Below the pieces are notes generated by a model. That model ran no database searches, was not told the origin of the DNA, and was given only the letters and a program-made list of their open reading frames with translations. Below are positions 3,438 to 19,455 of a stretch of 32,000 nt of DNA, piece after piece. Both the position numbers and the translations under genes were made by a program. The stretch is from Acidothermus cellulolyticus 11B (GTDB lineage: Bacteria; Actinomycetota; Actinomycetes; Acidothermales; Acidothermaceae), in the NCBI RefSeq assembly GCF_000015025.1, contig NC_008578.1, positions 750,001 through 782,000 on the forward strand. The letters are read 5' to 3'. Within the stretch, counting starts at the first letter, position 1. The number at the start of each line of letters is the position of its first letter.

Positions 3438-6678
<3,241 letters not shown>

Positions 6679-6797
6679 CCGACTGGACAATCGCCTTATT
6701 CGCCCGGGCGTCGCGGGTTTCCCGGTCCGATGTCGCGCTGGTCGGCTATACTCCCGTACCGCCGTCCACGTCCGCCCGCGAGAGTGCTGGAGTGTCC

Positions 6798-8225
6798 ATG
6801 CCCGGCGAGCCAATGCCTGTGGTCACGGCCGGCGTACGTCCACGCGACAGACGGCGATTTTTCGGCGACACGGAACCACGTACGTTCCTGGCCGTCTGTC
6901 TTGCGCTCTTCGCGGTCGCAGCGGTTCTCGTGCTCAGCGCCATTGCGCGGGGGAAGACCCTATCGTTATTCGACGAGGCGACGCACGCGGATTACGCGTA
7001 CCGAATCGCCCACGGACAGATTCCCGCCCGCGGAACTCCGTTGGCGCCGGAAATTCTGCGTGAATGGTCGTGTCGCGGCGGCGTTACCGGCCTCCATCTT
7101 CCGCCGTGCGACAGCTCGACACCGCCGGTTCCGTCGCAGTATCCCGGCCGGGGCGAGGATTACAACTTCGGTCATCCCCCGCTCTATTACGCCATTACCG
7201 GCGTCATCGCCCGCGGGTTGGGCGTTTTTCTGCCCGGTCCGCACTTCATCACGCTGGCGCGTCTCGTCGGTCTGCTCTGGCTCTTTGCCGCCATGGTGAC
7301 GTTGTATGCGGCGATTCGCCGGTTCGGCGGCGGCGTGCTGTTCGCCGCAGCGGGTGCGGCTCTTCTTCCGCTCGTCCCTGGTGTGCTGCACGCCTCGAGC
7401 ACGGTGAACAACGATGCCGCTGCTCCGCTCGCCGGAAGTATTGCGGCACTGCTGCTGGCCCGTTTGCTCATTGACGGTGCCACCGGCTGGCTTGTGCCGG
7501 TGCTTGCGACGTTTCTCGTGACGGCGACGAAGGTCCTCAACGCCCTACCGATGCTGCTTGTCGCCGCGGTCTGCGTCGTCCTGGCCGTCGCGGGAGACCG
7601 GGCGGCACGCTGGCCGATTCACGTCTCGCTCGCGCACCGGCGTCGCCAACTCCTCGTTCTCGCCGGCGGGATCGTCCTGGCCTTTCTCGTCGTCTACCAA
7701 GGGTGGAACCTGTTTCAGGCGCATCGCGGCGCGCAGCATTGGGTCAGTCCGGTCGCCGGAATAAGCGGCAGGCCGATCAAGGGGCTGCCCTTCGCCGAAT
7801 TGTTCAGCACGTTGTTCACCGGTTTCTCCATGGTGATAACGAACTATTACCTGCAGCCGTCCGTCGACGGCGAGACGATCACGCTCTGGGCGCGGTTGCT
7901 CGCATTCGTGGTCATCGCCGGGCCGCTGTTGGTGATGGTGACCTCTGCGCGCCGGAGCGCGCGATGGATATTTGGTCTCGGCGCGCTCGCCGGCCTGGTC
8001 GCGTATCCGCTTGCGGTGGAGCTTCAGGCTTTCGTGCAGTCCGGCGAGTACTTCCCAAGCGTTGCCGGCCGCTACGGCATGAGCGTCGTGCCCTGGCTCG
8101 CCGCGTGCCTCGCGTTGGCCTGCTGCGCGCGGGGCGCGGGAAGGGTGCTGGTGGCGTTCAGCGGCATCGGGTTCGTCGTCATGACCCTCGCCGTGACGGG
8201 TGTGTTCTCACTCGGGCCGGCCTGA
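6798..8225 (+). CDS. Polytopic integral membrane protein, possibly GT-C-fold (ArnT/PMT/DUF2142-like) glycosyltransferase
   Basis: About 475 aa from ATG 6798 (GTG 6792 and ATG 6813 are alternatives). About 12 hydrophobic segments. The first loop carries FDEATHADYAYR and GHPPLYYAITG, which is reminiscent of GT-C enzymes. High GC3. Confidence 0.65.
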   Translation: MPGEPMPVVTAGVRPRDRRRFFGDTEPRTFLAVCLALFAVAAVLVLSAIARGKTLSLFDEATHADYAYRIAHGQIPARGTPLAPEILREWSCRGGVTGLHLPPCDSSTPPVPSQYPGRGEDYNFGHPPLYYAITGVIARGLGVFLPGPHFITLARLVGLLWLFAAMVTLYAAIRRFGGGVLFAAAGAALLPLVPGVLHASSTVNNDAAAPLAGSIAALLLARLLIDGATGWLVPVLATFLVTATKVLNALPMLLVAAVCVVLAVAGDRAARWPIHVSLAHRRRQLLVLAGGIVLAFLVVYQGWNLFQAHRGAQHWVSPVAGISGRPIKGLPFAELFSTLFTGFSMVITNYYLQPSVDGETITLWARLLAFVVIAGPLLVMVTSARRSARWIFGLGALAGLVAYPLAVELQAFVQSGEYFPSVAGRYGMSVVPWLAACLALACCARGAGRVLVAFSGIGFVVMTLAVTGVFSLGPA

Positions 8226-8294
8226 ATGGTGCAGGCGCGGCGGCCGCCTGCCCGCTCGGGGTCGAGGCGCTGGTCGCGTCGCTAGGATGACCGC

Positions 8295-8591
8295 GTGCCC
8301 CGAGTTACCCGTGCCGACGTTGCTCACCTTGCCCGGCTCTCCCGACTCGCTCTCACCGAGGCCGAGCTTGACCGTTTCGCCGGCCAGCTCGACGTCATCC
8401 TTGACGCGGTGGCGAAAGTCTCTTCGGTCGCCGGCTCCGACGTACGCCCGACCTCGCACCCGCTTCCGTTGACCAACGTCTACCGGGACGACGAGGTCCG
8501 GCCCTCCCTACCGGTGGGAGAGGTGCTGGCGGCCGCGCCGGCGGTGGAGGACCAGCGGTTCAAGGTCCCGCGGATTCTGGAGGAAGAGTGA
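8295..8591 (+). CDS. gatC: Asp/Glu-tRNA amidotransferase subunit C
   Basis: 98 aa, GTG start with AGGA upstream. The sequence [29 protein letters not shown]...FKVPRILE is typical of GatC. Confidence 0.95.
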
Positions 8592-8596
8592 TCACA

Positions 8597-8700
8597 CCGG
8601 CCCAGCCTGCGGCGACCGTTGGGGGAGTGCCGGGCCAGCTTGCGGTGGCCGTCGGGAAGTGCCGTGGACGTCGGGGAGTGCCGTTCCTGCCTGCGGCGGC
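8597..8700. repeat. Imperfect tandem repeat of about 32 bp (two full units plus partial units) filling the gatC-gatA spacer
   Basis: Unit 1 (8597-8629) is CCGGCCCAGCCTGCGGCGACCGTTGGGGGAGTG. Unit 2 (8630-8661) is CCGGGCCAGCTTGCGGTGGCCGTCGGGAAGTG. Truncated units follow: CCGTGGACGTCGGGGAGTG, then CCGTTCCTGCCTGCGGCGGCG. Confidence 0.65.
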
Positions 8701-8718
8701 GTTCCAGCGAGGACGGCG

Positions 8719-10236
8719 ATGAGTGACCTGATTCGGCGGACCGCGGTCGAGCTCGCAGCGATGATCGCCGCCCGCGAGGTGTCAGCGGAGGAGGTCACCC
8801 GGGCGCACCTGGACCGTATCGCCGCGGTTGATCCCGCCGTGCACGCGTTTCTCTACGTCGATGCCGATGGCGCGCTGACCGCCGCCCGGGCGGTTGACGC
8901 CAGACTGGCGGCGGGGGAGAGACTCGGACCACTCGCCGGCGTCCCCCTTGCGCTCAAGGATGTGTTCACGACGCGCGGCATGCCGACCACCTGCGGCTCG
9001 AAGATTCTCGAAGGGTGGATCCCGCCATACGACGCGACGGTGGTGCAAAAAATCCGGGACGCCGGAATCGTCATTCTCGGCAAGACGAACATGGACGAAT
9101 TCGCGATGGGGTCGTCGACGGAGAATTCCGCATTCGGCCCCACCCGCAATCCTTGGGATTTGTCGCGTATTCCCGGCGGCTCATCCGGCGGCAGCGCGGC
9201 CGCGGTCGCGGCGTTCGAGGCGCCGCTGGCCATCGGTACTGACACGGGAGGGTCGATTCGGCAGCCGGCGGCCGTGACGGGCATTGTCGGCACCAAACCC
9301 ACGTACGGCGGCGTGTCGCGGTACGGCCTGGTCGCTTTCTCGTCGTCCCTCGACCAAGCGGGTCCGTTCGCCCGCACCGTGTTGGATGCCGCGTATCTGC
9401 ATGCCGCCATTGCGGGCCACGATCCGCGTGACGCCACGTCGATCGACGCTCCGGTGCCGGACGTCGTCGCCGCTGCCCGCAACGGGGACGTTCGCGGGTT
9501 GCGGATCGGGGTGGTGCGCGAATTGGACGGTGACGGATATGACCCCGGCGTCCGGCACCAATTCCATCAGGCGGTGAAGCTCCTCGCCGATCTCGGCGCC
9601 GACGTCGGTGAAGTGAGTTGCCCGCATTTCGAGTACGCCCTCGCCGCCTATTACCTCATCGCGCCCAGCGAGTGTTCGTCCAACCTCGCGCGATTCGACG
9701 CGATGCGGTACGGTTTGCGGCTCGGTGACGACGGCACCCGCACCGCGGAAGACGTCATGGCGCTCACCCGCGCGGCCGGCTTCGGCGCCGAGGTGAAACG
9801 CCGCATCATGCTGGGCACGTACGCGCTTTCCAGCGGTTACTACGAGGCCTATTACGGGTCGGCCCAGAAGGTCCGCACCCTCATCATCCAGGACTTCGCC
9901 GCCGCGTTCGAGAAATTCGACGTCCTCATCTCTCCGACCACCCCGACCACGGCTTTCCCGCTTGGCGAACGGGTGGACGACCCGCTGAAGATGTACCTGG
10001 CCGACCTCGACACGATTCCCGTGAATCTCGCCGGCAACGCCGCCATGTCCGTACCGATCGGCTGCTCGCCGGACGACGGCCTCCCGGTCGGCCTTCAGAT
10101 CATGGCACCGGTGTTGGCGGATGACCGGCTGTACCGGGTCGGTGCGGCGCTGGAAGCGGCGTACCGGGAACGCACCGGCCGGCTGCTCATTGAGGACGTA
10201 CCGGATCCTGCCGCGAATCAGGAGGGAGCCGCGTGA
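8719..10236 (+). CDS. gatA: Asp/Glu-tRNA amidotransferase subunit A
   Basis: 505 aa from ATG 8719 (GAGGA 5 nt upstream). Amidase signature [13 protein letters not shown]...[13 protein letters not shown]. The track start at 8659 would translate the repeat array. Confidence 0.95.
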
Positions 10237-11798: not shown

Positions 11799-12725
11799 AT
11801 GAGCGAGGCCGAGGTCCACGTCTGGGTGCCCTACCCGGAAATGGCGGCGGATCTGCGCGGTCTGTCAGCGCGGCTGCGGGTCGGCCTTTTCACCGGAACA
11901 GAGAGTCCCGCCGACGTGCCGGAGCCGCACATTCTCGTGGCGCCGTACACCCTCGGCACGAAAAAACTTGCGGCGGCGCTGCGGTCACCCCGGCTGCGGG
12001 TCATCCAGCTTCTGACCGCCGGTTACGAGCAGGTGGCGCCGCTGGTTCCCGACGGTGTCCTCCTCTGCAACGCGCGCGGCGTCCATGACGCGAGCACGGC
12101 GGAACTCGCCGTCGCGTTGATGCTGGCCGCGCTGCGCGGAATTCCCGATTTCGTTCGAGCGCAGCAAACCGGAGAGTGGCGGCATGCCACGTATCCCTCG
12201 CTGGCGGACCGCACCGTGTTGATCCTCGGTTACGGATCCATCGGCGAGGCGTTGGAGCGCCGTCTCGCCGGCTTCGAGGTACGCATCCTGCGGGTCGCCC
12301 GGCGGCCCCGCCCCGGAGTCCACGGCATCGAGGAGGTCTGGGGTTTGCTCGGCGAAGCGGACGTGGTCGTCGTCCTCACCCCACTGACCGCCGAGACCAG
12401 GCATCTCGTTGACGAGAAATTCCTGGCGCGGATGCGGCCTGGTGCGCTGCTGGTCAACGTCGCTCGCGGGGCGGTGGTGGACACCGAGGCGCTGGTGCAT
12501 GCTGTTGCGGCAGGACGCATTCGCGCCGCCCTCGACGTGACAGATCCCGAGCCGCTCCCGCCGGACCATCCCCTCTGGCGGCTCCCCGGGGTGCTGATTT
12601 CGCCGCACGTCGGCGGGGACACCACCGCGTTTCTCCCGCGCGCCCGGCAACTCATCGTCGACCAGATTTCGCGGTACCTGAACGGCGAACCGCTGCGTAA
12701 CGTTGTCGCCGGTGACACTGATTGA
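11799..12725 (+). CDS. D-isomer-specific 2-hydroxyacid dehydrogenase family protein
   Basis: 308 aa. NAD-binding LILGYGSIGEALERRL and the catalytic region NVARG...ALDVTDPEP...SPHVGG. Confidence 0.85.
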   Translation: MSEAEVHVWVPYPEMAADLRGLSARLRVGLFTGTESPADVPEPHILVAPYTLGTKKLAAALRSPRLRVIQLLTAGYEQVAPLVPDGVLLCNARGVHDASTAELAVALMLAALRGIPDFVRAQQTGEWRHATYPSLADRTVLILGYGSIGEALERRLAGFEVRILRVARRPRPGVHGIEEVWGLLGEADVVVVLTPLTAETRHLVDEKFLARMRPGALLVNVARGAVVDTEALVHAVAAGRIRAALDVTDPEPLPPDHPLWRLPGVLISPHVGGDTTAFLPRARQLIVDQISRYLNGEPLRNVVAGDTD

Positions 12726-12794
12726 GCGGTGATGTCGCACGCCTGAGCCGGGCGTCGGCCGCCCGTGTGCGCAGCAGGGAACACCTCCATCACT

Positions 12795-12833
12795 GGGACT
12801 TTCGTCCCGAGTGAAGTCCGTGACGCTCGGGAC
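12795..12833 (+). promoter_or_regulatory. Two mutually exclusive hairpins in the por leader region
   Basis: GGGAC-TTTC-GTCCC (12795-12808) shares its 3' arm with GTCCCGAG-N14-CTCGGGAC (12804-12833). Both stems are perfect. Confidence 0.3.
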
Positions 12834-12969
12834 CTACGGCTCTGGGCGCTGGAGATCGGCGAACCGGAGACTGATGGTGTCAACAGGCGGCGATGGATCG
12901 TCGACGAGGCCGTGTCGGCGCCGTCTGTTCAGGCGCAGCCGATCGTGTGCGGCGGGAGGCGAAGATGGC

Positions 12970-13554
12970 ATGTGGCAGATTCGGGTGCACGGTAGGGGCG
13001 GACAAGGCGTCGTCACCGCGGCTGAGCTGCTCGCCGATGCAGCCTTTCGCGACGGATACGAGGTACAGGCTTTTCCCAGTTTCGGTTCCGAGCGGATGGG
13101 CGCCCCGGTAACGGCGTACTGTCGCTTGGACACACTGCCGATCCGTATCCGAGAGCCTGTCGTTGACGCCGATGCTCTTCTTGTCATTGACGCATCGTTG
13201 TTGCGTCTGCCGGAGACGCTCGCGGGGTTGAGGACGGGCGGGTGGGTTCTCGTGAATTCCGCTCGACCTCCGCAGCAGCTCGGCGTGACATCCACGGCGT
13301 CCTCCGACGTACACATTCGTTGGGCGACGGTGCCGGCGACGGCGCTGGCCCGACGCTATCTGGGACGTGCGGTGCCCAACGCGCCAATGCTCGGCGCTTT
13401 TGCAGCACTTACCCGACTGGTCTCGTTGACGGCAATTGAGGACGCACTGTCGGATCGCTTCACGGCCCCTATCGCTGAGCAGAATATCCAGGCGGCCCGT
13501 GCAGCCTTTGCTTCTCTTCAGCAGGTGGTGACGAGCGATGCGCAGTCAGCGTGA
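12970..13554 (+). CDS. porG: 2-oxoacid:ferredoxin oxidoreductase, gamma subunit
   Basis: 194 aa from ATG 12970, with GGGAGG at 12954-12959. Motifs IRVHGRGGQGVVTAAELLADAA and FPSFGSERMGAPV. Many A/T-ending codons. Confidence 0.85.
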   Translation: MWQIRVHGRGGQGVVTAAELLADAAFRDGYEVQAFPSFGSERMGAPVTAYCRLDTLPIRIREPVVDADALLVIDASLLRLPETLAGLRTGGWVLVNSARPPQQLGVTSTASSDVHIRWATVPATALARRYLGRAVPNAPMLGAFAALTRLVSLTAIEDALSDRFTAPIAEQNIQAARAAFASLQQVVTSDAQSA

Positions 13555-14728
13555 AGCCTCCCGGGCCATAGCCGAGGTGGTCGGTCGATGCCGTCCGCAG
13601 GTCGTTCCCGCTTATCCGATCACTCCGCAGACCCACATCGTGGAAGCACTCGGCGCCATGATCCGGGCCGGCACCCTTTCGCCGTGCGTCTTTCTTACCG
13701 TCGAATCAGAATTCGCGGCGATGTCAGCGGCGATCGGTGCCTCGTTCGCCGGATCCCGCACATACACCGCGACTGCCAGTCAAGGGCTTCTGTACATGGC
13801 TGAAGCGCTGTTCAACGCGTCCGGTTTAGGGGCACCGATCGTCATGACGGTCGCCAATCGCGCGGTCGGTGCGCCGATCAACATTTGGAACGATCAGAGC
13901 GATGCGATGAGCCTGCGGGATTGCGGCTGGATCCAGCTCTACGCCCCGGACAATCAAGCTGCGGTCGACCTGCATGTTCTGGCGTTCCGCGTCGCGGAGG
14001 CTCTCTCACTTCCGGTCATGGTGTGCATGGACGGTTTCGTCCTCACCCACGCCTTCGAACCATTGGCTGTTCCGACACAAGCCCAGGTCGACAATTTTCT
14101 TCCTCCCTTTCGGCCGCGGCAGGTTCTCGATCCCGGCGATCCGGTGACCATCGGTGCCATGGTCGGCCCGGAGGCCTTCACCGAGGTGAAGTATCTCTCG
14201 GCGCAGCGGCTCGACGCGGCGGTGAACGTGTTCGAGTGGTTCGCACAGGAATACGCCGAGATAACCGGCCGCCGTTATCACGCGGTGGAAAGCTACCGCA
14301 TCGAACACGCGGACACGGTTGTTGTCGCCCTTGGTTCGGCGGCGGGAACGTTGTACGAGCTTGCAGACGCAGTCCCTGGTGTCGGGGTTCTTGTCATCAC
14401 GATGTATCGCCCATTTCCGGCGCGGGTCGTCCGGGGACTTCTCGCCGCAGCCCGACGCGTCATCGTGCTCGAACGCGCCTTTGCACCGGGAGCCGGCGGC
14501 ATCGTCACCGCCGATGTGCGTGCCGCGGTCGCCGGAACGAGCGCGATGGTGCATACCGTCATTGGGGGACTGGGTGGACGTCCGATCCGGCTGGCCTCGT
14601 TGCGCGCCGTGGTAACCGCCGATGCGCTTCCGGATATTCATTTCCTCGATCTACGCGAGGACGTCGTTCGCCGTGAATGGGAGCGGGATCCCACGGTCTC
14701 GGCGATGGAGGTGCGCCATGTCCGCTGA
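13538..14728 (+). CDS. porA: 2-oxoacid:ferredoxin oxidoreductase, alpha subunit
   Basis: 396 aa, overlapping porG by 17 nt. Motifs AYPITPQT, ESEFAAMSAAIGASFAG and TATASQGLLYM. Confidence 0.9.
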   Translation: MRSQREASRAIAEVVGRCRPQVVPAYPITPQTHIVEALGAMIRAGTLSPCVFLTVESEFAAMSAAIGASFAGSRTYTATASQGLLYMAEALFNASGLGAPIVMTVANRAVGAPINIWNDQSDAMSLRDCGWIQLYAPDNQAAVDLHVLAFRVAEALSLPVMVCMDGFVLTHAFEPLAVPTQAQVDNFLPPFRPRQVLDPGDPVTIGAMVGPEAFTEVKYLSAQRLDAAVNVFEWFAQEYAEITGRRYHAVESYRIEHADTVVVALGSAAGTLYELADAVPGVGVLVITMYRPFPARVVRGLLAAARRVIVLERAFAPGAGGIVTADVRAAVAGTSAMVHTVIGGLGGRPIRLASLRAVVTADALPDIHFLDLREDVVRREWERDPTVSAMEVRHVR

Positions 14729-15701
14729 CAACGGACGGTCCCTTTCGCTGACAACCCGCACGGCTGGCGGCAGACTGGTTCCCCCCGCGCGGCGTGCGGA
14801 ACAGGCTAATCCACACCGACGCAACGCACTGACCTCGGGTCACCGCGCCTGCCAGGGATGCGGAGTTGCTCTCGCTGCTCGTACCGTCGTTGATGCTGCG
14901 TACCGCGCCTCCGGGGGAAAACTCGTTGTCGTGACAGCAACCGGATGTCTTGAGGTGTTCTCAACACCCTATCCGGAGAGCGCGTGGCGGGTTCCTTGGT
15001 TGCACTCGTTGTTCGCTAATGCGGCATCGGTGGCAAGCGGTGTGGCGGCCGCGCTGTACGCCCAGGGACGGGAGGACGTTCGAGTCCTTGCGCAGGGCGG
15101 GGACGGAGCGACCGTCGACATCGGCCTCGCCTGCCTCTCCGGCATGTTCGAACGAGGCGATGACGTCCTGTATGTGTGTTACGACAACGAGGCGTATATG
15201 AATACCGGCATTCAGCGCTCGGGTGCGACACCGCCATATGCGCGGACCGCAACAACGGAAGCGGTCGGAGACGAGCCGGGAAATCCGCCTGGGACGGGAA
15301 AGGACTTGCCGCGTATCGCGCTCGCGCACAGCATTCCCTACGTAGCGACGGCGACCATAGGCGATATTCACGACCTTGAGGCCAAAGTGGTGAACGCGAT
15401 GGGTGTGCGTGGAGCCCGATACCTGCACGTCCTGACACCCTGTCCCCTTGGTTGGGGGAGCGGACCTGCTGAGACGATCGCATTGGCCCGCCTTGCCCAG
15501 CGTTCCGGTTTGTTCCCGGTTTTCGAAGCACGGGACGGGGAAATCACCTCGGTGCTTCCGATTCGGCGGCCGGTTCCGGTCGAGGAGTACCTCCGGCCGC
15601 AACGCCGATTCGCCCATCTGTTCGCCGATCCGGACCGTCGCCTGCTCACCAGGTTGCAGGAATTCGCCGACAGCACGAAGGCGCGGTACGGCTTGATGTG
15701 A
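14718..15701 (+). CDS. porB: 2-oxoacid:ferredoxin oxidoreductase, beta (TPP and [4Fe-4S]) subunit
   Basis: 327 aa from ATG 14718, overlapping the porA stop. Cys motif GHRACQGCG...ATGC and TPP motif GGDGATVDIG...YDNEAYMNTG. Confidence 0.9.
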   Translation: MSADNGRSLSLTTRTAGGRLVPPARRAEQANPHRRNALTSGHRACQGCGVALAARTVVDAAYRASGGKLVVVTATGCLEVFSTPYPESAWRVPWLHSLFANAASVASGVAAALYAQGREDVRVLAQGGDGATVDIGLACLSGMFERGDDVLYVCYDNEAYMNTGIQRSGATPPYARTATTEAVGDEPGNPPGTGKDLPRIALAHSIPYVATATIGDIHDLEAKVVNAMGVRGARYLHVLTPCPLGWGSGPAETIALARLAQRSGLFPVFEARDGEITSVLPIRRPVPVEEYLRPQRRFAHLFADPDRRLLTRLQEFADSTKARYGLM

Positions 15702-15710
15702 AGGGGGTGC

Positions 15711-17345
15711 GTGATGGATTTACCGTTCGCGGTGAGTCTTGCACCGGCTTCGAGCAGATCGAACCACACGGGTACGTGGCGCACCGATCGACCCGTCTAT
15801 ATCGATGCCTGGCCGCCGTGTAATGCGGCATGTCCCGCTGGTGAATCCGTCCAGGGGTGGCTTTACCACGCCGCAGCAGGCGATTGGGAGATCGCCTGGC
15901 GCCAGCTTGTCGCAGTGAATCCGTTTCCGGCCGTCATGGGACGGGTCTGCTATCACCCGTGCGAGGCGCGGTGCAATCGCCGGGAATTCGATGAGGCCGT
16001 CGCCATCAATGCGGTCGAACAATTCCTTGGAGATGAGGCGCTGCGCCGTGGTTGGCGCCTGCCGTCACCCGGTGCACCGACAGGTCATCGTGTGCTGATC
16101 GTCGGTGCCGGGCCGGCAGGTCTTGCTGCGGCGTATCACCTGCGGTTGCTCGGACATGAGGTGGAGCTTCACGACGCCGAAGCCGAGCCCGGTGGGATGA
16201 TGCGCTACGCCATCCCGACGTTCCGGCTCTCCCGTCGAGTCCTCGACGCAGAAATTGAACGCGTCCTCGAGTTGGGAATTCACTACCATCCGCGGTCACG
16301 GATTTCCGACCTCAGCGCCGTCAGCGGATATGACGCCATATTCGTAGCCGTCGGTGCTCAGCGTCCGCATCGGGTCCAACTCCCCGCCGATCCTGCGGCG
16401 CGGATTCTCGACGCGTTGGACCTGCTCCGGCGTACCGCGCAAGGCGAACGGCCGGGATTAGGGCGGCGGGTCGCCGTCTACGGCGGCGGCAATACCGCGA
16501 TGGACGCTGCGCGCACCGCGAAACGCCTCGGCGCTGACGAGGTGGTCGTCGTGTACCGACGCACCCGGGAGCGCATGCCCGCTCACGACACAGAGGTGGC
16601 CGAGGCCGTCGAGGAAGGGGTGGCTTTCGAGTGGTTGTCGACGGTGACCCACGTGGAGCCGGGAAGCCTTCGCCTGGAACGAATGGAGCTCGACGCAGCC
16701 GGGAAACCTCGACCAACCGGGCGGTTTGTCGCGCGTCCGGCGGACACTCTGATCCTCGCCTTGGGACAGGAGGTGGACGCCGGGCTGCTGCGTGCGTTGC
16801 CGGGCGTGCGTTGTGCCGACGGCGGCGTGGCGGTGGACGCGTCCCTCATGACCGGAGCGGCCGGCGTCTTTGCCGGCGGGGACATGATTCCTGGTGAACG
16901 CACCGTCACTGCCGCGATCGGTCACGGGCGACGGGCCGCGCTCTCCATCGACGCGTGGCTCCGGGGGCGGCAACCGCCGTCCGAACCGCTTCGGGAATCG
17001 GCCGCTTTCGCGTCACTGAACACGTGGTACTACGACGAATCACCCGCGGCACAGCGCAACCGCCTGCCACGAGCCCGCCGGCTCGGGGGGTTTGGCGAGG
17101 TGGTTCGCGGACTTGACCCGGCACACGCGTTGGCCGAGGCCCGACGATGCTTCTCCTGCGGCAATTGCTTCCAGTGCGACAACTGCTACGCCGTCTGCCC
17201 CGACGCGGCGGTTCTCAAGGTCGAGTCCGGGCACGGCTATGCGATCGACCTCGATTACTGCAAGGGATGCGGGTTATGCGTCGCCGAGTGTCCGGTGGGT
17301 GCCATTCGCACGGTGCCCGAACCGGGCACCGAGGTCGATGCATGA
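15711..17345 (+). CDS. Fusion protein: PorD-like N-terminal arm, GltD/NfnB-like NAD(P)H-FAD oxidoreductase and a C-terminal 2x[4Fe-4S] ferredoxin domain
   Basis: 544 aa from GTG 15711 (ATG 15714 is 6 nt after AAGGGGG). Motifs: HTGTWRTDRPV (PorD arm); PPCNAACPAGE and GRVCYHPCEARCNR (GltD-type Fe-S domain); VLIVGAGPAGLAAAYHL; GGMMRYAIPTFRL; VAVYGGGNTAMDAARTAKRLGA; VFAGGDM; C-terminal CFSCGNCFQCDNCYAVCP and DYCKGCGLCVAECP. Confidence 0.85.
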   Translation: MMDLPFAVSLAPASSRSNHTGTWRTDRPVYIDAWPPCNAACPAGESVQGWLYHAAAGDWEIAWRQLVAVNPFPAVMGRVCYHPCEARCNRREFDEAVAINAVEQFLGDEALRRGWRLPSPGAPTGHRVLIVGAGPAGLAAAYHLRLLGHEVELHDAEAEPGGMMRYAIPTFRLSRRVLDAEIERVLELGIHYHPRSRISDLSAVSGYDAIFVAVGAQRPHRVQLPADPAARILDALDLLRRTAQGERPGLGRRVAVYGGGNTAMDAARTAKRLGADEVVVVYRRTRERMPAHDTEVAEAVEEGVAFEWLSTVTHVEPGSLRLERMELDAAGKPRPTGRFVARPADTLILALGQEVDAGLLRALPGVRCADGGVAVDASLMTGAAGVFAGGDMIPGERTVTAAIGHGRRAALSIDAWLRGRQPPSEPLRESAAFASLNTWYYDESPAAQRNRLPRARRLGGFGEVVRGLDPAHALAEARRCFSCGNCFQCDNCYAVCPDAAVLKVESGHGYAIDLDYCKGCGLCVAECPVGAIRTVPEPGTEVDA

Positions 17346-17383
17346 CGGGTAGCGACGGAATCACGCCGGAGGCCGCCGCACGG

Positions 17384-17402
17384 TGCGCGCCCCATGCGCG
17401 CA
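17384..17402 (+). terminator. Candidate stem-loop downstream of the por operon (no T tract)
   Basis: TGCGCGC-CCCAT-GCGCGCA, a 7-bp perfect stem 39 nt after the stop of the fusion gene. Confidence 0.3.
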
Positions 17403-17411
17403 ACAGGACCG

Positions 17412-17462
17412 TTGAACGGGGCGTCGCTGCGTAACGTTGTGACTGGGGACGACGCCGGGTAG
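17412..17462 (+). pseudogene. Ghost 3' end of a 2-hydroxyacid dehydrogenase gene (last 16 codons plus stop)
   Basis: 17412-17462 translates to LNGASLRNVVTGDDAG*, compared with LNGEPLRNVVAGDTD* at the end of the intact gene. In an ungapped alignment, 17413-17452 matches 12679-12718 at 30 of 40 nt, including a perfect 16-mer CGCTGCGTAACGTTGT. Similarity is lost upstream of 17412. Confidence 0.5.
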
Positions 17463-17490
17463 GTCGGCTGTCCCCTCGGGCCCGGCACGG

Positions 17491-19455
17491 ATGGGAGAGC
17501 GCGTGTCCAGGGCAGCGACGGAATTCGGCGAATTCGCCGCGAGCTTCGCGGATCCGCTGTTCCGGCTCGGCTATCTCCTGGTGTGCGCGGAACCGACCCC
17601 GTCGCTGCCTGACGTGACCCTCGCCCGGACGGTGACCGTCCGGGCGCTGCTCGCTACCCGCCGGCATTGGCGTGACGTGGCGTCCGGCGCCGCGCCGGAG
17701 AGCCTGGCCGTGGCGGCGTTGTTCCGAGCAGTATCCCGACCCCGCCGTACCCCGTCTGCCAGTCGATCGGCGGCTGGCGCCCAGCCCGCCGTCCGTGCCG
17801 GCGACCGGCTGCACGCCGTCGGTGTCAGCGACCCCCGGGCGGGTCTCGGGGCGCCGGTGGCGGCGCCGTCCGACGACGACGCCGAGCTGCGACGCGCACT
17901 CGATGCCATGTGGTGCTCGCTGTCACCGGCGGCACGCGCCGTCTTCCTCGCCGAGCACGGCGTCTCCCTCTTCCATTGGATGGCCGACCTCGACCTTCCC
18001 GACGTCTTCGGCCACCGGCGGCGGGCGAAGCACTCCGCCGAATGGCAGGCCGCCTGGACCGGCCTCCTGCGCCAGGCGGGCACGCGGGGCGGTGCGGACG
18101 TCGACCAGCTCCTCCGTGCTGTCCTGGCCGAGCGGGCGGCCTGGCCCCCAACGCCGCCGGGCGTCGTGCCGGAGGTCGAGCAGCGGCAACGGGTCCGCGT
18201 CCGATGGACCGCCGCGGTCGGTGCGACGCTCGTCCTGGCACTGGTCGCCGGCGGTCTTGCCTTCGCCCGCCCGCAGACCGCCACACAGCGCGCCGGTCAG
18301 CACCATCCAACGGCTGCGCCGGCCTCTGCCGGTCCCATCGTCAACTGGCCGGTCCGCGGCAACGCGGCCGCCGTCGACCTCGTCGTCCAGCTGCGGGCGC
18401 AATTCGCCCGGGACCATCCGGACGCCTATGGGCCGGTGCAGGTTCTCCTGGTCGCGGACGTTCCGTGGTTCCGCCTCGCCTATGTGGTCGCGAGAACGGC
18501 AAGCGGTGTCGTCAACGCGTGGTACTACGGGCCGGCCGGCTCCCAAGACCTCCAGCAAGGCTATGTCTCCTACGGTCAGCCGCTCGCGGCGCCCGAGGGT
18601 TCCCCGTCCCCGACGGCTCCCGAGGGTTCCCCGTCCGCGACGGCTCCCGCTGTGGTCGCTGCAGCGCTTGCGGATCCGAGCGGCCATGTCGCTCTCGTCG
18701 CCCTGACCGCCCCCCAGCTCCTCAGCGGGGAGCTCCGCACCGGCACCACTACGCTGCCGACGCGGCTGGCCGCGTCCGACGGCGCGATCGTGGCGGACAT
18801 CAGTGCGGTGTACGCGCCAGGGGAGACGCTCCGGCTCATTGCCGGCGGCCGGACGGTCTGGGAGGGCCCGCTCGCCCTCTTGCAGCTGGCGGCCCGCCCC
18901 ACCGCCTCGGCACTGGCCCGGTTCCCCGGCGGTCAGGGAGCGGAACTCATCCCCGTCCAGCGGGGCACCGCCAACACCCCCGAACTCTTCCGTGCCCTGC
19001 AGATCCTGGACGCCTGGCGGCGCACCGGGGAGCTGGCGTCGTCCGCCGAGCCCACTGTGCTCTGGGGCGGGGCTGACGGCGAAGGCACCCAGCTCCTCAT
19101 CCTGCGGGCCAAAACCCTGCACCGGCCGGACCTGCTCATCGTCGTCTGGGGAGCGGCCCCGGAGGCGGCCGGGGAGTATCTCCTGCGCCCGGACCTCCCC
19201 GACTATCCGCTGGCGTTCAGCTATCTCGGGGCCGGCGGCAACCGGATCGGCGTCCTCACTCCCCTGGGGGTGACCAGTGTGGGCTTGTACGTCCGGGGGG
19301 CTGTGCGCATGACCGCCCCGGTGGATGCGACCGGCTTTGCCACGCTGCCCGCGGTGGTCGAACCGACCAGCCTTGGCGACGGGTACGCCTCGCTGATCCT
19401 GTACGACGCCCAGGGCAAGGACGTCGGTCGGGTCGCGGTTCCACCGCCGGTGTGA
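17491..19455 (+). CDS. Hypothetical single-pass membrane protein with a degenerate ECF-sigma-like N-terminal region
   Basis: 654 aa with an ATG start. GC3 is about 83% by hand count over the first 60 codons, consistent with this frame being the coding one. The antisense 551-aa ORF is Arg/Gly-rich shadow. One TM segment (WTAAVGATLVLALVAGGLAFA). The N-terminus (FGEFAASFADPLFRLGYLL...RRHWRDV, then LSPAARAVFLAEH) loosely follows a sigma region-2 / region-4 pattern. Confidence 0.7.
   Translation: MGERVSRAATEFGEFAASFADPLFRLGYLLVCAEPTPSLPDVTLARTVTVRALLATRRHWRDVASGAAPESLAVAALFRAVSRPRRTPSASRSAAGAQPAVRAGDRLHAVGVSDPRAGLGAPVAAPSDDDAELRRALDAMWCSLSPAARAVFLAEHGVSLFHWMADLDLPDVFGHRRRAKHSAEWQAAWTGLLRQAGTRGGADVDQLLRAVLAERAAWPPTPPGVVPEVEQRQRVRVRWTAAVGATLVLALVAGGLAFARPQTATQRAGQHHPTAAPASAGPIVNWPVRGNAAAVDLVVQLRAQFARDHPDAYGPVQVLLVADVPWFRLAYVVARTASGVVNAWYYGPAGSQDLQQGYVSYGQPLAAPEGSPSPTAPEGSPSATAPAVVAAALADPSGHVALVALTAPQLLSGELRTGTTTLPTRLAASDGAIVADISAVYAPGETLRLIAGGRTVWEGPLALLQLAARPTASALARFPGGQGAELIPVQRGTANTPELFRALQILDAWRRTGELASSAEPTVLWGGADGEGTQLLILRAKTLHRPDLLIVVWGAAPEAAGEYLLRPDLPDYPLAFSYLGAGGNRIGVLTPLGVTSVGLYVRGAVRMTAPVDATGFATLPAVVEPTSLGDGYASLILYDAQGKDVGRVAVPPPV
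18592..18645 (+). repeat. In-frame 27-bp tandem duplication inside the 654-aa CDS
   Basis: CCCGAGGGTTCCCCGTCCCCGACGGCT and CCCGAGGGTTCCCCGTCCGCGACGGCT match at 26 of 27 positions. They encode PEGSPSPTA and PEGSPSATA. Confidence 0.85.

Follow-up and report, generated by a model that had tools for sequence, protein, structure and literature searches.

What takes up the electrons of a 2-oxoacid oxidoreductase that is encoded with neither a ferredoxin nor a separate electron-transfer subunit? The 2-oxoacid:ferredoxin oxidoreductases (OFORs) are textbook ferredoxin enzymes of anaerobes. A unit of four genes in Acidothermus cellulolyticus 11B raises this question, and we analysed it within a stretch of 32,000 nucleotides (nt) of contig NC_008578.1 (positions 750,001 to 782,000; hereafter the window). 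The first three genes encode the gamma, alpha and beta subunits of an OFOR, and the last encodes a protein of 544 residues. We propose that the four genes probably specify one complex, in which an internal NADP+ reductase has been built out of the delta subunit. It would be a pyruvate:NADP+ oxidoreductase that is induced by hypoxia and does not depend on ferredoxin. The proposal builds on the domain content of the four proteins, the split and permuted architecture of the fourth, the conservation of its cluster ligands, a conserved gene order and natural gene fusions.

The four open reading frames (ORFs) lie on the forward strand (Table 1). The gamma and alpha genes overlap by 17 nt and the alpha and beta genes by 11 nt, a gap of 9 nt separates beta from the fourth gene, and a GGGAGG ribosome-binding site lies 11 nt 5' of gamma. 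An earlier reading of this DNA (the sequence-only reading) had given the same coordinates, overlaps and gap, all of which were confirmed on the sequence. On metagenome contigs that are 97-99% identical, an independent gene caller found matching genes of 194, 396, 327 and 543 amino acids, and it starts the fourth gene at ATG 15714, one codon past GTG 15711. A scan of positions 12600-17600 for sigma-70 promoters and intrinsic terminators returned nothing exceeding chance.

Profile searches bear out the earlier assignment of the first three genes. Gamma matches PF01558 (POR, E=1.8e-41) and TIGR02175 (PorC_KorC, 179.8 bits against a cutoff of 81), alpha matches the Pfam families POR_N (6.7e-64) and PFOR_II (2.9e-16), and beta matches TPP_enzyme_C (3.8e-15). 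The catalytic motifs are intact on the sequence, namely the thiamine pyrophosphate (TPP) motif and four cluster cysteines of beta, GRGGQG of gamma and YPITPQT of alpha. A six-frame scan of the whole window for CxxCxxCxxxCP gave two occurrences, both in the 544-residue protein, so the window holds no free delta subunit or ferredoxin gene, and the PorD-like domain is confined to the fourth protein, as had been claimed. Rather than a separate small delta of about 80-105 residues, the delta parts are found as residues 1-33 and 486-537 of this protein. With them, the unit has the core domains, the TPP and Cys motifs, and the delta arm and 2x[4Fe-4S] domain of a four-subunit Por/Vor-type OFOR.

Table 1. 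Positions in the window of the four genes, the segments of the fourth product and the predicted upstream box
Feature	Position	Strand	Details
DosR/DevR/OsdR-type palindromic box (predicted) GGGACTTTCGTCCC	12795..12808		162 nt 5' of gamma ATG, within 244-nt upstream region
OFOR gamma subunit	12970..13554	+	194 aa; CoA-binding domain III; GRGGQG motif; PF01558, TIGR02175
OFOR alpha subunit	13538..14728	+	396 aa; domains I and II; YPITPQT substrate-carboxylate motif; POR_N, PFOR_II
OFOR beta subunit	14718..15701	+	327 aa; TPP site GDG128...DNEAYMN; [4Fe-4S] ligands C45, C48, C77, C154
Fourth subunit	15711..17345	+	544 aa; circularly permuted GltD/NfnL-like FAD-NADPH module between the two parts of a PorD delta
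PorD-type N-terminal arm, residues 1-33	15711..15809	+	conserved P5, S15, N18, TGxWR20-24, Y30
GltD-type Fe-S domain, second part, residues 35-114	15813..16052	+	C37, C41, C80, C84, C88, E103
FAD domain (GAGPAG132-137) and NADP(H) domain (GGGNTAMD258-265, YRRT282-285), residues 127-420	16089..16970	+	
GltD-type Fe-S domain, displaced first part, residues 452-485	17064..17165	+	R..F.EV......A..EARRC480xxC483GN
PorD-type 2x[4Fe-4S] ferredoxin domain, residues 486-537	17166..17321	+	C486, C489, C492, C496; C517, C520, C523, C527

The fourth protein carries Fer4_20 at residues 35-114 (1.3e-18), Pyr_redox_2 at residues 127-406 (1.5e-30) and a 2x[4Fe-4S] domain at residues 480-537 that matches TIGR02179 (PorD_KorD, 62.2 bits against a cutoff of 60.05) and PorD_Arch (70.1 bits). 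Fer4_20, Pyr_redox_2, GAGPAG and GGGNTAMD together make up a module with an Fe-S, a FAD and an NAD(P)H Rossmann part, and these matches uphold the claim of the sequence-only reading that a GltD/NfnB-like FAD-NAD(P)H module is joined to a PorD-like domain. The contiguous N-terminal motif of GltD (CxxCx4Cx3CP...Cx3-5Cx3C with a Glu/Gln ligand) is absent, as C480 and C483 lie about 440 residues downstream of the rest. The order of the parts was tested by re-joining segments of the protein and scoring the chimeric sequences against hidden Markov model (HMM) profiles. When residues 1-33 were joined to residues 478-544, the PorD_Arch match rose from 58.6 bits (profile positions 29-84) to 79.7 bits (positions 6-84) and that to TIGR02179 from 58.3 to 75.9 bits; the arm by itself matches PorD_Arch positions 6-31 (E=0.0011). 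The native N-terminal match to Fer4_20 spans profile positions 30-112 only (59.9 bits), whereas residues 446-485 placed in front of residues 35-125 gave a complete match (positions 4-112, 91.0 bits), re-created the canonical CxxCGNPxCxxxCP spacing, and raised TIGR01318 from 47.0 to 76.2 bits and TIGR01317 from 47.3 to 72.1 bits. Judged by these profile scores, the 544-residue protein is a circularly permuted GltD-like module inserted into a PorD delta, and not the simple end-to-end fusion that had been supposed. Its predicted domain order runs from the PorD arm through the second GltD Fe-S part, the FAD domain and the NADPH domain to the first GltD Fe-S part and the PorD 2x[4Fe-4S] domain. Since the arm and the PorD cluster domain are both kept, the fourth protein should fill the delta position on alpha/beta. 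The protein is a full-length member of NF009410 (PRK12771; 702.6 bits, cutoff 516, over positions 24-565 of the 566-position profile), whose cutoff is also passed by distant representatives at 42-51% identity and which curated libraries name only generically, as 'NAD(P)-binding protein'.

The cluster ligands and the flavin site are highly conserved. Among 76 homologues, 15 cysteines (C37, C41, C80, C84, C88, C480, C483, C486, C489, C492, C496, C517, C520, C523 and C527) are conserved at 99-100% and E103 at 95% or more, which brings the total to 16 ligands, the number that four [4Fe-4S] clusters need. In alignments, E103 falls on the cluster ligand (Glu, Gln or Lys) of NfnL, DPD and NfnA, with VEQF set against LKRF of the NfnA chain (PMC12018979). 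As C483 and C486 are three residues apart, a GltD-type and a PorD-type cluster would have to be neighbours. The counterparts of VEQF are presumably LERF in NfnL and LQQF in DPD. The FAD- and NADPH-binding motifs are invariant across homologues, and GGGNTAMD...VYRRTRERMPA differs little from the NADPH sites that NfnA has in 9bov and 9n5u (PMC12018979), an argument for NADP(H). Among solved structures, the flavin module is closest to the NfnL-like NADPH-binding domains of NfnA in NfnABC/StnABC (9bov, 8oh5, 9n5u), followed by NfnL/NfnB (5jca, 4ylf), Xfn, GltD (2vdc) and DPD (1gt8). E-values to these GltD-like structures range from 1e-90 to 1e-27 by sequence and from 2e-40 to 1e-25 by Foldseek, and target-normalised Foldseek TM-scores are 0.71-0.77 with chains the size of GltD, NfnL and Xfn and about 0.33-0.40 with NfnA and DPD, whose chains are longer. 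The PorD cluster domain matches the delta subunit of a pyruvate:ferredoxin oxidoreductase (PFOR; 9bt4_G, 4.5e-12). An AlphaFold2 model of the monomer has a mean pLDDT of 71.7, with values mostly of 80-98 in the flavin and nucleotide domains.

From this arrangement we infer complex formation and an internal electron path, with pyruvate as the substrate, NADP+ as the acceptor and oxidation as the direction. Pyruvate and CoA would react at the TPP site of alpha/beta to give acetyl-CoA and CO2, and the two electrons would exit singly through the [4Fe-4S] cluster of beta and from there enter the fourth subunit at its two PorD-type clusters. They would next cross the two GltD-type clusters, predicted to be ligated by C480/C483/C37/E103 and C41/C80/C84/C88, in either order, and gather on FAD, from where NADP+ would be reduced by hydride transfer. 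The net reaction would be pyruvate + CoA + NADP+ -> acetyl-CoA + CO2 + NADPH, and no soluble ferredoxin would be required. The potential of the pyruvate/acetyl-CoA+CO2 couple is about -500 mV and that of NADP+ is -320 mV, so the oxidation of pyruvate by NADP+ is strongly favourable. Physiologically, the reaction most probably forms part of a DosR/OsdR-type hypoxia response, in which pyruvate, supplied from phosphoenolpyruvate (PEP) by an often co-transcribed pyruvate phosphate dikinase (PPDK), would be converted to acetyl-CoA and NADPH when respiration is limited.

We compared 87 loci, comprising 80 full-length loci from a scan of one genome per species, with homologues at 55-66% identity, and seven found by exact look-up. 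Homologues of equal length and architecture are very numerous, and the unit is present in Actinomycetota, Proteobacteria, Dormibacterota and Planctomycetota. The hosts are Streptomyces, Nonomuraea, Nocardioides, Kribbella, Solirubrobacterales, Acidimicrobiia, Planktophila (acI), Dormibacterota, Gallionellaceae, Rhodocyclaceae, Rhodobacteraceae, Magnetovibrio, Granulosicoccaceae and Phycisphaeraceae. The ordered unit of gamma, alpha, beta and fourth gene is found in 80 of the 87 loci, five of the seven exceptions being truncated contigs, and another ferredoxin motif occurs within about 6 kb of the unit at seven loci only. A similarity search from a Rhodocyclaceae homologue returned only generically named proteins.

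The same partners also occur as natural fusions. In a large family of proteins of about 740 residues, a POR gamma domain is fused to the fourth protein, and the alpha and beta genes then follow; some sources label fused members 'ferredoxin-NADP reductase'. In proteins of about 1000-1130 residues, POR_N and TPP_enzyme_C are fused to the same flavin module. The claim that the unit forms one complex with an internal path to NAD(P)+ thus gains comparative support, from the gene order, the fusions and the PorD arm. Three single chains of 991-1131 residues (P0194, P0234 and P0202) contain POR_N, TPP_enzyme_C (IOR-alpha-like), Fer4_20, Pyr_redox_2 and Fer4 and are possible one-chain bacterial 2-oxoacid:NAD(P)+ oxidoreductases. 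On a 1-Mb contig of a metagenome-assembled genome (MAG; L088, 400-12601), a classical delta-alpha-beta-gamma OFOR adjoins hemerythrin and is followed by a response regulator, Usp, a CBS protein, a 750-residue gamma::flavin-delta fusion, alpha, beta and an ADP-forming acetyl-CoA synthetase, placing two OFOR types within one putative stress locus. With the classical and fused types side by side, the flavin-bearing protein is seen to replace delta, and there also gamma.

The surroundings of the unit bear on its substrate. In the window it lies in a block of ligA, gatA, gatB, a 2-hydroxyacid dehydrogenase gene, the OFOR unit, a 654-residue ORF of unknown function, ilvD, ilvB, ilvN, ilvC and serA, which ends with an ilvE-like gene, leuA and an Rv2993c-like gene. 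The flanking ligA-gatAB...ilvD-ilvBNC-serA-leuA genes form a conserved actinobacterial housekeeping block, which the OFOR unit interrupts. The OFOR genes have a GC content of 0.63-0.67, and of 0.67-0.72 at third codon positions (GC3), against a GC3 of 0.80-0.88 in every neighbour (gatB, the 2-hydroxyacid dehydrogenase gene, the 654-residue ORF, ilvD, ilvBNC and serA). This low GC3 makes the unit look inserted, as if acquired horizontally into the housekeeping block. The ilv context is not conserved in any other lineage examined. Neighbours in other genomes are PPDK, Usp, Zn-alcohol dehydrogenase (ADH), aldehyde dehydrogenase (ALDH), PntAB transhydrogenase, acetyl-CoA hydrolase/transferase and ADP-forming acetyl-CoA synthetase. 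PPDK, the commonest, adjoins the unit in 17 loci, and in nine Solirubrobacterales (L017, L024, L032, L037-L040, L044, L048) the PPDK gene has the orientation of gamma and stops 3-17 nt short of it, a spacing that implies a five-gene PPDK-OFOR operon.

Pyruvate is the most likely substrate, because the core subunits score best with Por models and with the PFOR of M. acetivorans and because the recurrent neighbours fit. The top family is PorA_Arch for alpha (399 bits, against 252 for VorA) and PorB for beta (315 bits, against 272 for the Vor beta model); Por models are the top matches of all three core subunits, and M. acetivorans PFOR is their best solved match (for alpha, 9bt4_B, 4.5e-93). The link to branched-chain amino acid metabolism drawn in the sequence-only reading proves to be positional, given the GC3 gap, the lack of a conserved ilv context elsewhere and Por scores above those of Vor. 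Between gatB and the promoter region of the unit lies a gene for a D-isomer-specific 2-hydroxyacid dehydrogenase of 308 residues (11799-12725, forward strand), of native composition, which could interconvert a 2-hydroxyacid and the 2-oxoacid substrate of the OFOR. We leave it out of the unit, as other lineages do not conserve it as a neighbour.

The region in front of gamma suggests when the unit is used. The box GGGACTTTCGTCCC is the sole exact GGGAC-N4-GTCCC of the window, where 0.12 is expected by chance, and it matches the DevR/DosR consensus TTSGGGACTWWAGTCCCSAA (PMC2703886) and Streptomyces OsdR sites such as AGGGACCTTCGGCCCC (PMC5069765). In the other loci, the 450-nt stretches that precede gamma add up to 35 kb and hold 17 boxes with at most one mismatch, about 7-fold more than the 2.3 or so expected; the other 906 kb hold 59. 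The upstream boxes include GGGAC(N)TTCGGCCC in four Streptomyces genomes. Among the members of the OsdR regulon are PPDK, Usp, ADH and nitrate reductase, and the neighbours Usp, ADH, ALDH and PPDK of the unit resemble this content (PMC5069765). We infer that the unit is under hypoxia or dormancy control through the predicted DosR/OsdR-type box. Two exact GGGAC-N4-GTCCC boxes also stand in front of an orphan homologue of the fourth gene in a Trebonia sp. MAG (L022), with Zn-alcohol dehydrogenase genes close by.

Several other explanations of the locus have to be weighed. The fourth protein might be an independent GltD-like enzyme that is merely co-transcribed, which would leave a delta-less, three-subunit OFOR. 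The PRK12771 annotation says no more than 'NAD(P)-binding protein', and the orphan L022 homologue (5493-7653) has no OFOR genes in the 6 kb upstream or 3.5 kb downstream; but the gene order holds across phyla, the protein is covalently fused to gamma and to alpha/beta domains, it keeps the PorD arm and cluster domain, and to our knowledge Por-type alpha/beta cores occur only with a delta domain, so that we regard independence as extremely unlikely. It is less far-fetched, though still unlikely, that a soluble ferredoxin or flavodoxin stays the main acceptor, the flavin module serving as a ferredoxin:NADP+ reductase on a tether, or else for regulation or protection, for example by using NADPH to re-reduce and activate clusters oxidised by O2 in mostly aerobic hosts. 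The PorD domain is complete and could stay solvent-exposed, Streptomyces, Nocardioides and Solirubrobacterales are aerobes, where OFORs need protection, L088 has the classical and flavin types side by side near hemerythrin and Usp genes, and the 'ferredoxin-NADP reductase' label is attached to some fused members. Yet 80 of the 87 loci have no ferredoxin gene alongside the unit, the unbroken cysteine stretch C480-C496 would wire the PorD clusters straight to the GltD clusters, and the invariance of the NADPH and FAD motifs is what one would expect of a catalytic site. A similarly small chance attaches to the same architecture acting on another 2-oxoacid (2-oxoisovalerate, another branched-chain 2-oxoacid or 2-oxoglutarate) to give acyl-CoA and NAD(P)H. 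Here the unit adjoins ilvD, ilvBNC, ilvE and leuA, the Vor models score well too (alpha 252 bits, beta 272 bits), and archaeal POR and VOR are closely related and overlap in specificity. The NAD+-dependent phenylglyoxylate enzyme (EC 1.2.1.58) reportedly also oxidises 2-oxoisovalerate. However, the ilv genes are not partners of the unit in the other lineages examined and differ from it in composition, all three subunits are best matched by Por models and a solved PFOR, and the partners that do recur act in pyruvate and acetyl-CoA metabolism.

The direction of the reaction can also be questioned. In reverse, the same complex would be an NADPH-dependent pyruvate synthase (acetyl-CoA + CO2 -> pyruvate) that feeds PPDK for PEP and serves gluconeogenesis or CO2/acetate assimilation; flavin-based bifurcation of electrons at its GltD-type FAD might help. 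No neighbour is commoner than PPDK, which is often co-transcribed, the pairing of pyruvate synthase with PPDK or PEP synthase is a classical anabolic one (e.g. PMC4914600), GltD-type clusters have low potentials, and in NfnL the homologous FAD bifurcates electrons and supplies low-potential clusters (PMC8097209). But PPDK works from PEP to pyruvate too, ADH, ALDH, ADP-forming acetyl-CoA synthetase, Usp and the DosR box point to catabolic, hypoxic use, and no gene for an NfnS- or PyrK-like high-potential branch was noted in the neighbourhoods and flanking clusters examined, though without a systematic search over the 87 loci. With NADPH alone the reaction would be uphill by about 180 mV. The NAD(P)H-driven synthase that the sequence-only reading had offered as an option is not supported, being thermodynamically unfavourable without an extra driving force (about -500 against -320 mV), and we consider reversal quite unlikely. 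Very unlikely, in our judgement, is a reversible or anabolic ferredoxin-free pyruvate synthase whose FAD pushes the electrons of NADPH down the low-potential chain into the TPP site. Were an anabolic role with PPDK true, Actinomycetota, Solirubrobacterales and Proteobacteria would carboxylate acetyl-CoA to pyruvate and PEP in (micro)aerobic life with no ferredoxin pool.

We therefore favour a pyruvate:NADP+ oxidoreductase working in the oxidative direction, but several points weigh against it besides the orphan homologue. The function of every family member is a prediction. The choice of NADP+ over NAD+ as the acceptor rests on motif similarity, and an exposed PorD domain could also reduce a soluble ferredoxin. 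The pLDDT of the AlphaFold2 model falls below 50 at residues 1-22 and 436-499, exactly the Fe-S and arm regions. The equivalog cutoffs of the Por models are missed (PorA_Arch 399 against 550, PorB 315 against 405, PorC 172.6 against 225 bits), and the substrate specificity of OFORs is not reliably readable from sequence. The upstream box is a single one, at least one exact box arises in 12 of 100 shuffles, and a DosR/OsdR regulator gene is absent from the 32-kb window.

Comparison with known systems shows where the unit departs from them. It resembles the PorABCD/PorGDAB PFOR (M. acetivorans, 9bt4) in its ordinary gamma, alpha and beta subunits and in having the TPP motif, the beta ligands, and the delta arm and 2x[4Fe-4S] domain. 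In contrast to that enzyme, it has no free delta of 85-105 residues, since about 450 residues, a module with FAD, an NADPH site and two clusters, separate the delta halves, and its predicted acceptor is NADP+ instead of ferredoxin. The eukaryotic pyruvate:NADP+ oxidoreductase (PNO, EC 1.2.1.51) of Euglena, Cryptosporidium and Blastocystis is one chain, a homodimeric-type PFOR with a C-terminal cytochrome-P450-reductase-like FMN/FAD module. It shares with our unit the predicted net reaction, an OFOR core wired to an NADP+-reducing flavoprotein and use at low oxygen, but the unit here has four subunits and an unrelated module, GltD/NfnL-type FAD and 2x[4Fe-4S], inserted into delta. A Pfam search of the four proteins found none of the PNO-type domains (flavodoxin, FAD_binding_1, NAD_binding_1). 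PNO is mentioned in PMC8611851.

A bacterial parallel is phenylglyoxylate:NAD+ oxidoreductase, PadEFGHI, of Azoarcus/Thauera (EC 1.2.1.58; Hirsch et al. 1998, as cited in bioRxiv 10.64898/2026.01.30.702948). Like our unit, it is a bacterial Por/Vor-type OFOR with an extra FAD subunit and direct reduction of a pyridine nucleotide, but it has five separate subunits, among them a free delta, PadF (78-residue model NF045763). The Pad models score 125.6, 214.4 and 176.9 bits with our gamma, alpha and beta, which are thus detectably related, but far below their equivalog cutoffs of 300, 700 and 700. The Pad epsilon model is not among the best 25 matches of the 544-residue protein, so the flavin subunit is probably of another type. 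PadF itself was considered as the flavin subunit of phenylglyoxylate dehydrogenase and rejected, since the NCBIfam PadF is a delta of 78 residues. The 2-oxoglutarate:NADP+ oxidoreductase of Azoarcus evansii, attributed to Ebenau-Jehle, Boll and Fuchs (2003), is reportedly a FAD enzyme, NADP+-specific and ferredoxin-independent, and is said to combine a two-subunit KorAB-type core with a third subunit of about 63 kDa and to act on 2-oxoglutarate. If so, its extra subunit is similar in size to the 544-residue protein, whereas its core type and substrate differ. Among GltD-like modules (NfnA, NfnL, GltD and DPD), the arrangement with RCxxCG after the flavin domain is common to NfnA-type proteins and the 544-residue protein. 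The partner here is an OFOR core and not a glutamate synthase alpha subunit, NfnS, a DHODH-like domain or Bfu subunits, and the first 30 residues of the split Fe-S domain have moved beside the PorD domain. The extra subunit of the five-subunit OFOR of Hydrogenobacter/Aquifex was rejected as a GltD-like parallel, as it is CODH/ACS-epsilon-like (PMC10052474). A 2021 review of GltD-like modules names GltS, DPD, Nfn and AegA and no OFOR partner (PMC8097209). The por genes of Acidithiobacillus ferrooxidans are given as 'porABG', with no delta gene (PMC2607301), and may be another, overlooked instance of the flavin-delta architecture.

An OFOR that reduces a pyridine nucleotide directly is therefore a known concept, from PNO and PadEFGHI, and the sequence-only reading, which presented the unit as a bacterial analogue of PNO, had missed the bacterial precedents, EC 1.2.1.58 and, reportedly, the 2-oxoglutarate enzyme of Azoarcus. 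For a Por-type core with a delta::permuted-GltD subunit, no description or biochemistry was found in full-text literature searches, which is weak evidence given their limited coverage of subscription journals. The split and permuted fourth subunit is a clear example of the splicing of electron-transfer modules. If our proposal is true, many mostly aerobic bacteria of soil, freshwater and the sea would couple pyruvate oxidation directly to NADPH, and metabolic reconstructions would change, as these genes are now read as a PFOR that needs ferredoxin and a 'glutamate synthase small subunit'. The enzyme would be an independent, convergent counterpart of the eukaryotic PFOR-CPR fusion (CPR, cytochrome P450 reductase) and a new component of DosR/OsdR-type hypoxia and dormancy physiology, giving acetyl-CoA and NADPH jointly. 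PNO supplies the same two products for wax-ester fermentation in Euglena. A ferredoxin-independent enzyme linking pyruvate, acetyl-CoA and NADPH would also serve metabolic engineering.

Three further observations concern neighbouring DNA. Directly 3' of the unit, the ORF of 654 residues (17491-19455, forward strand; GC 0.73, GC3 0.85) has no Pfam match and encodes an Ala/Pro-rich protein with a repeated 'APEGSPS(P/A)TAP' stretch; it is kept in the near-identical contigs L005 and L006 and is absent from the recurrent flanking clusters of other loci. Within 6363-8470, a long ORF of 620 residues (6363-8225) likewise has no Pfam match, and its GC3 is not as high as in the real genes of this DNA. 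The gene gatC would be expected in the unannotated stretch between ligA (4426-6678) and gatA (8659-10236).

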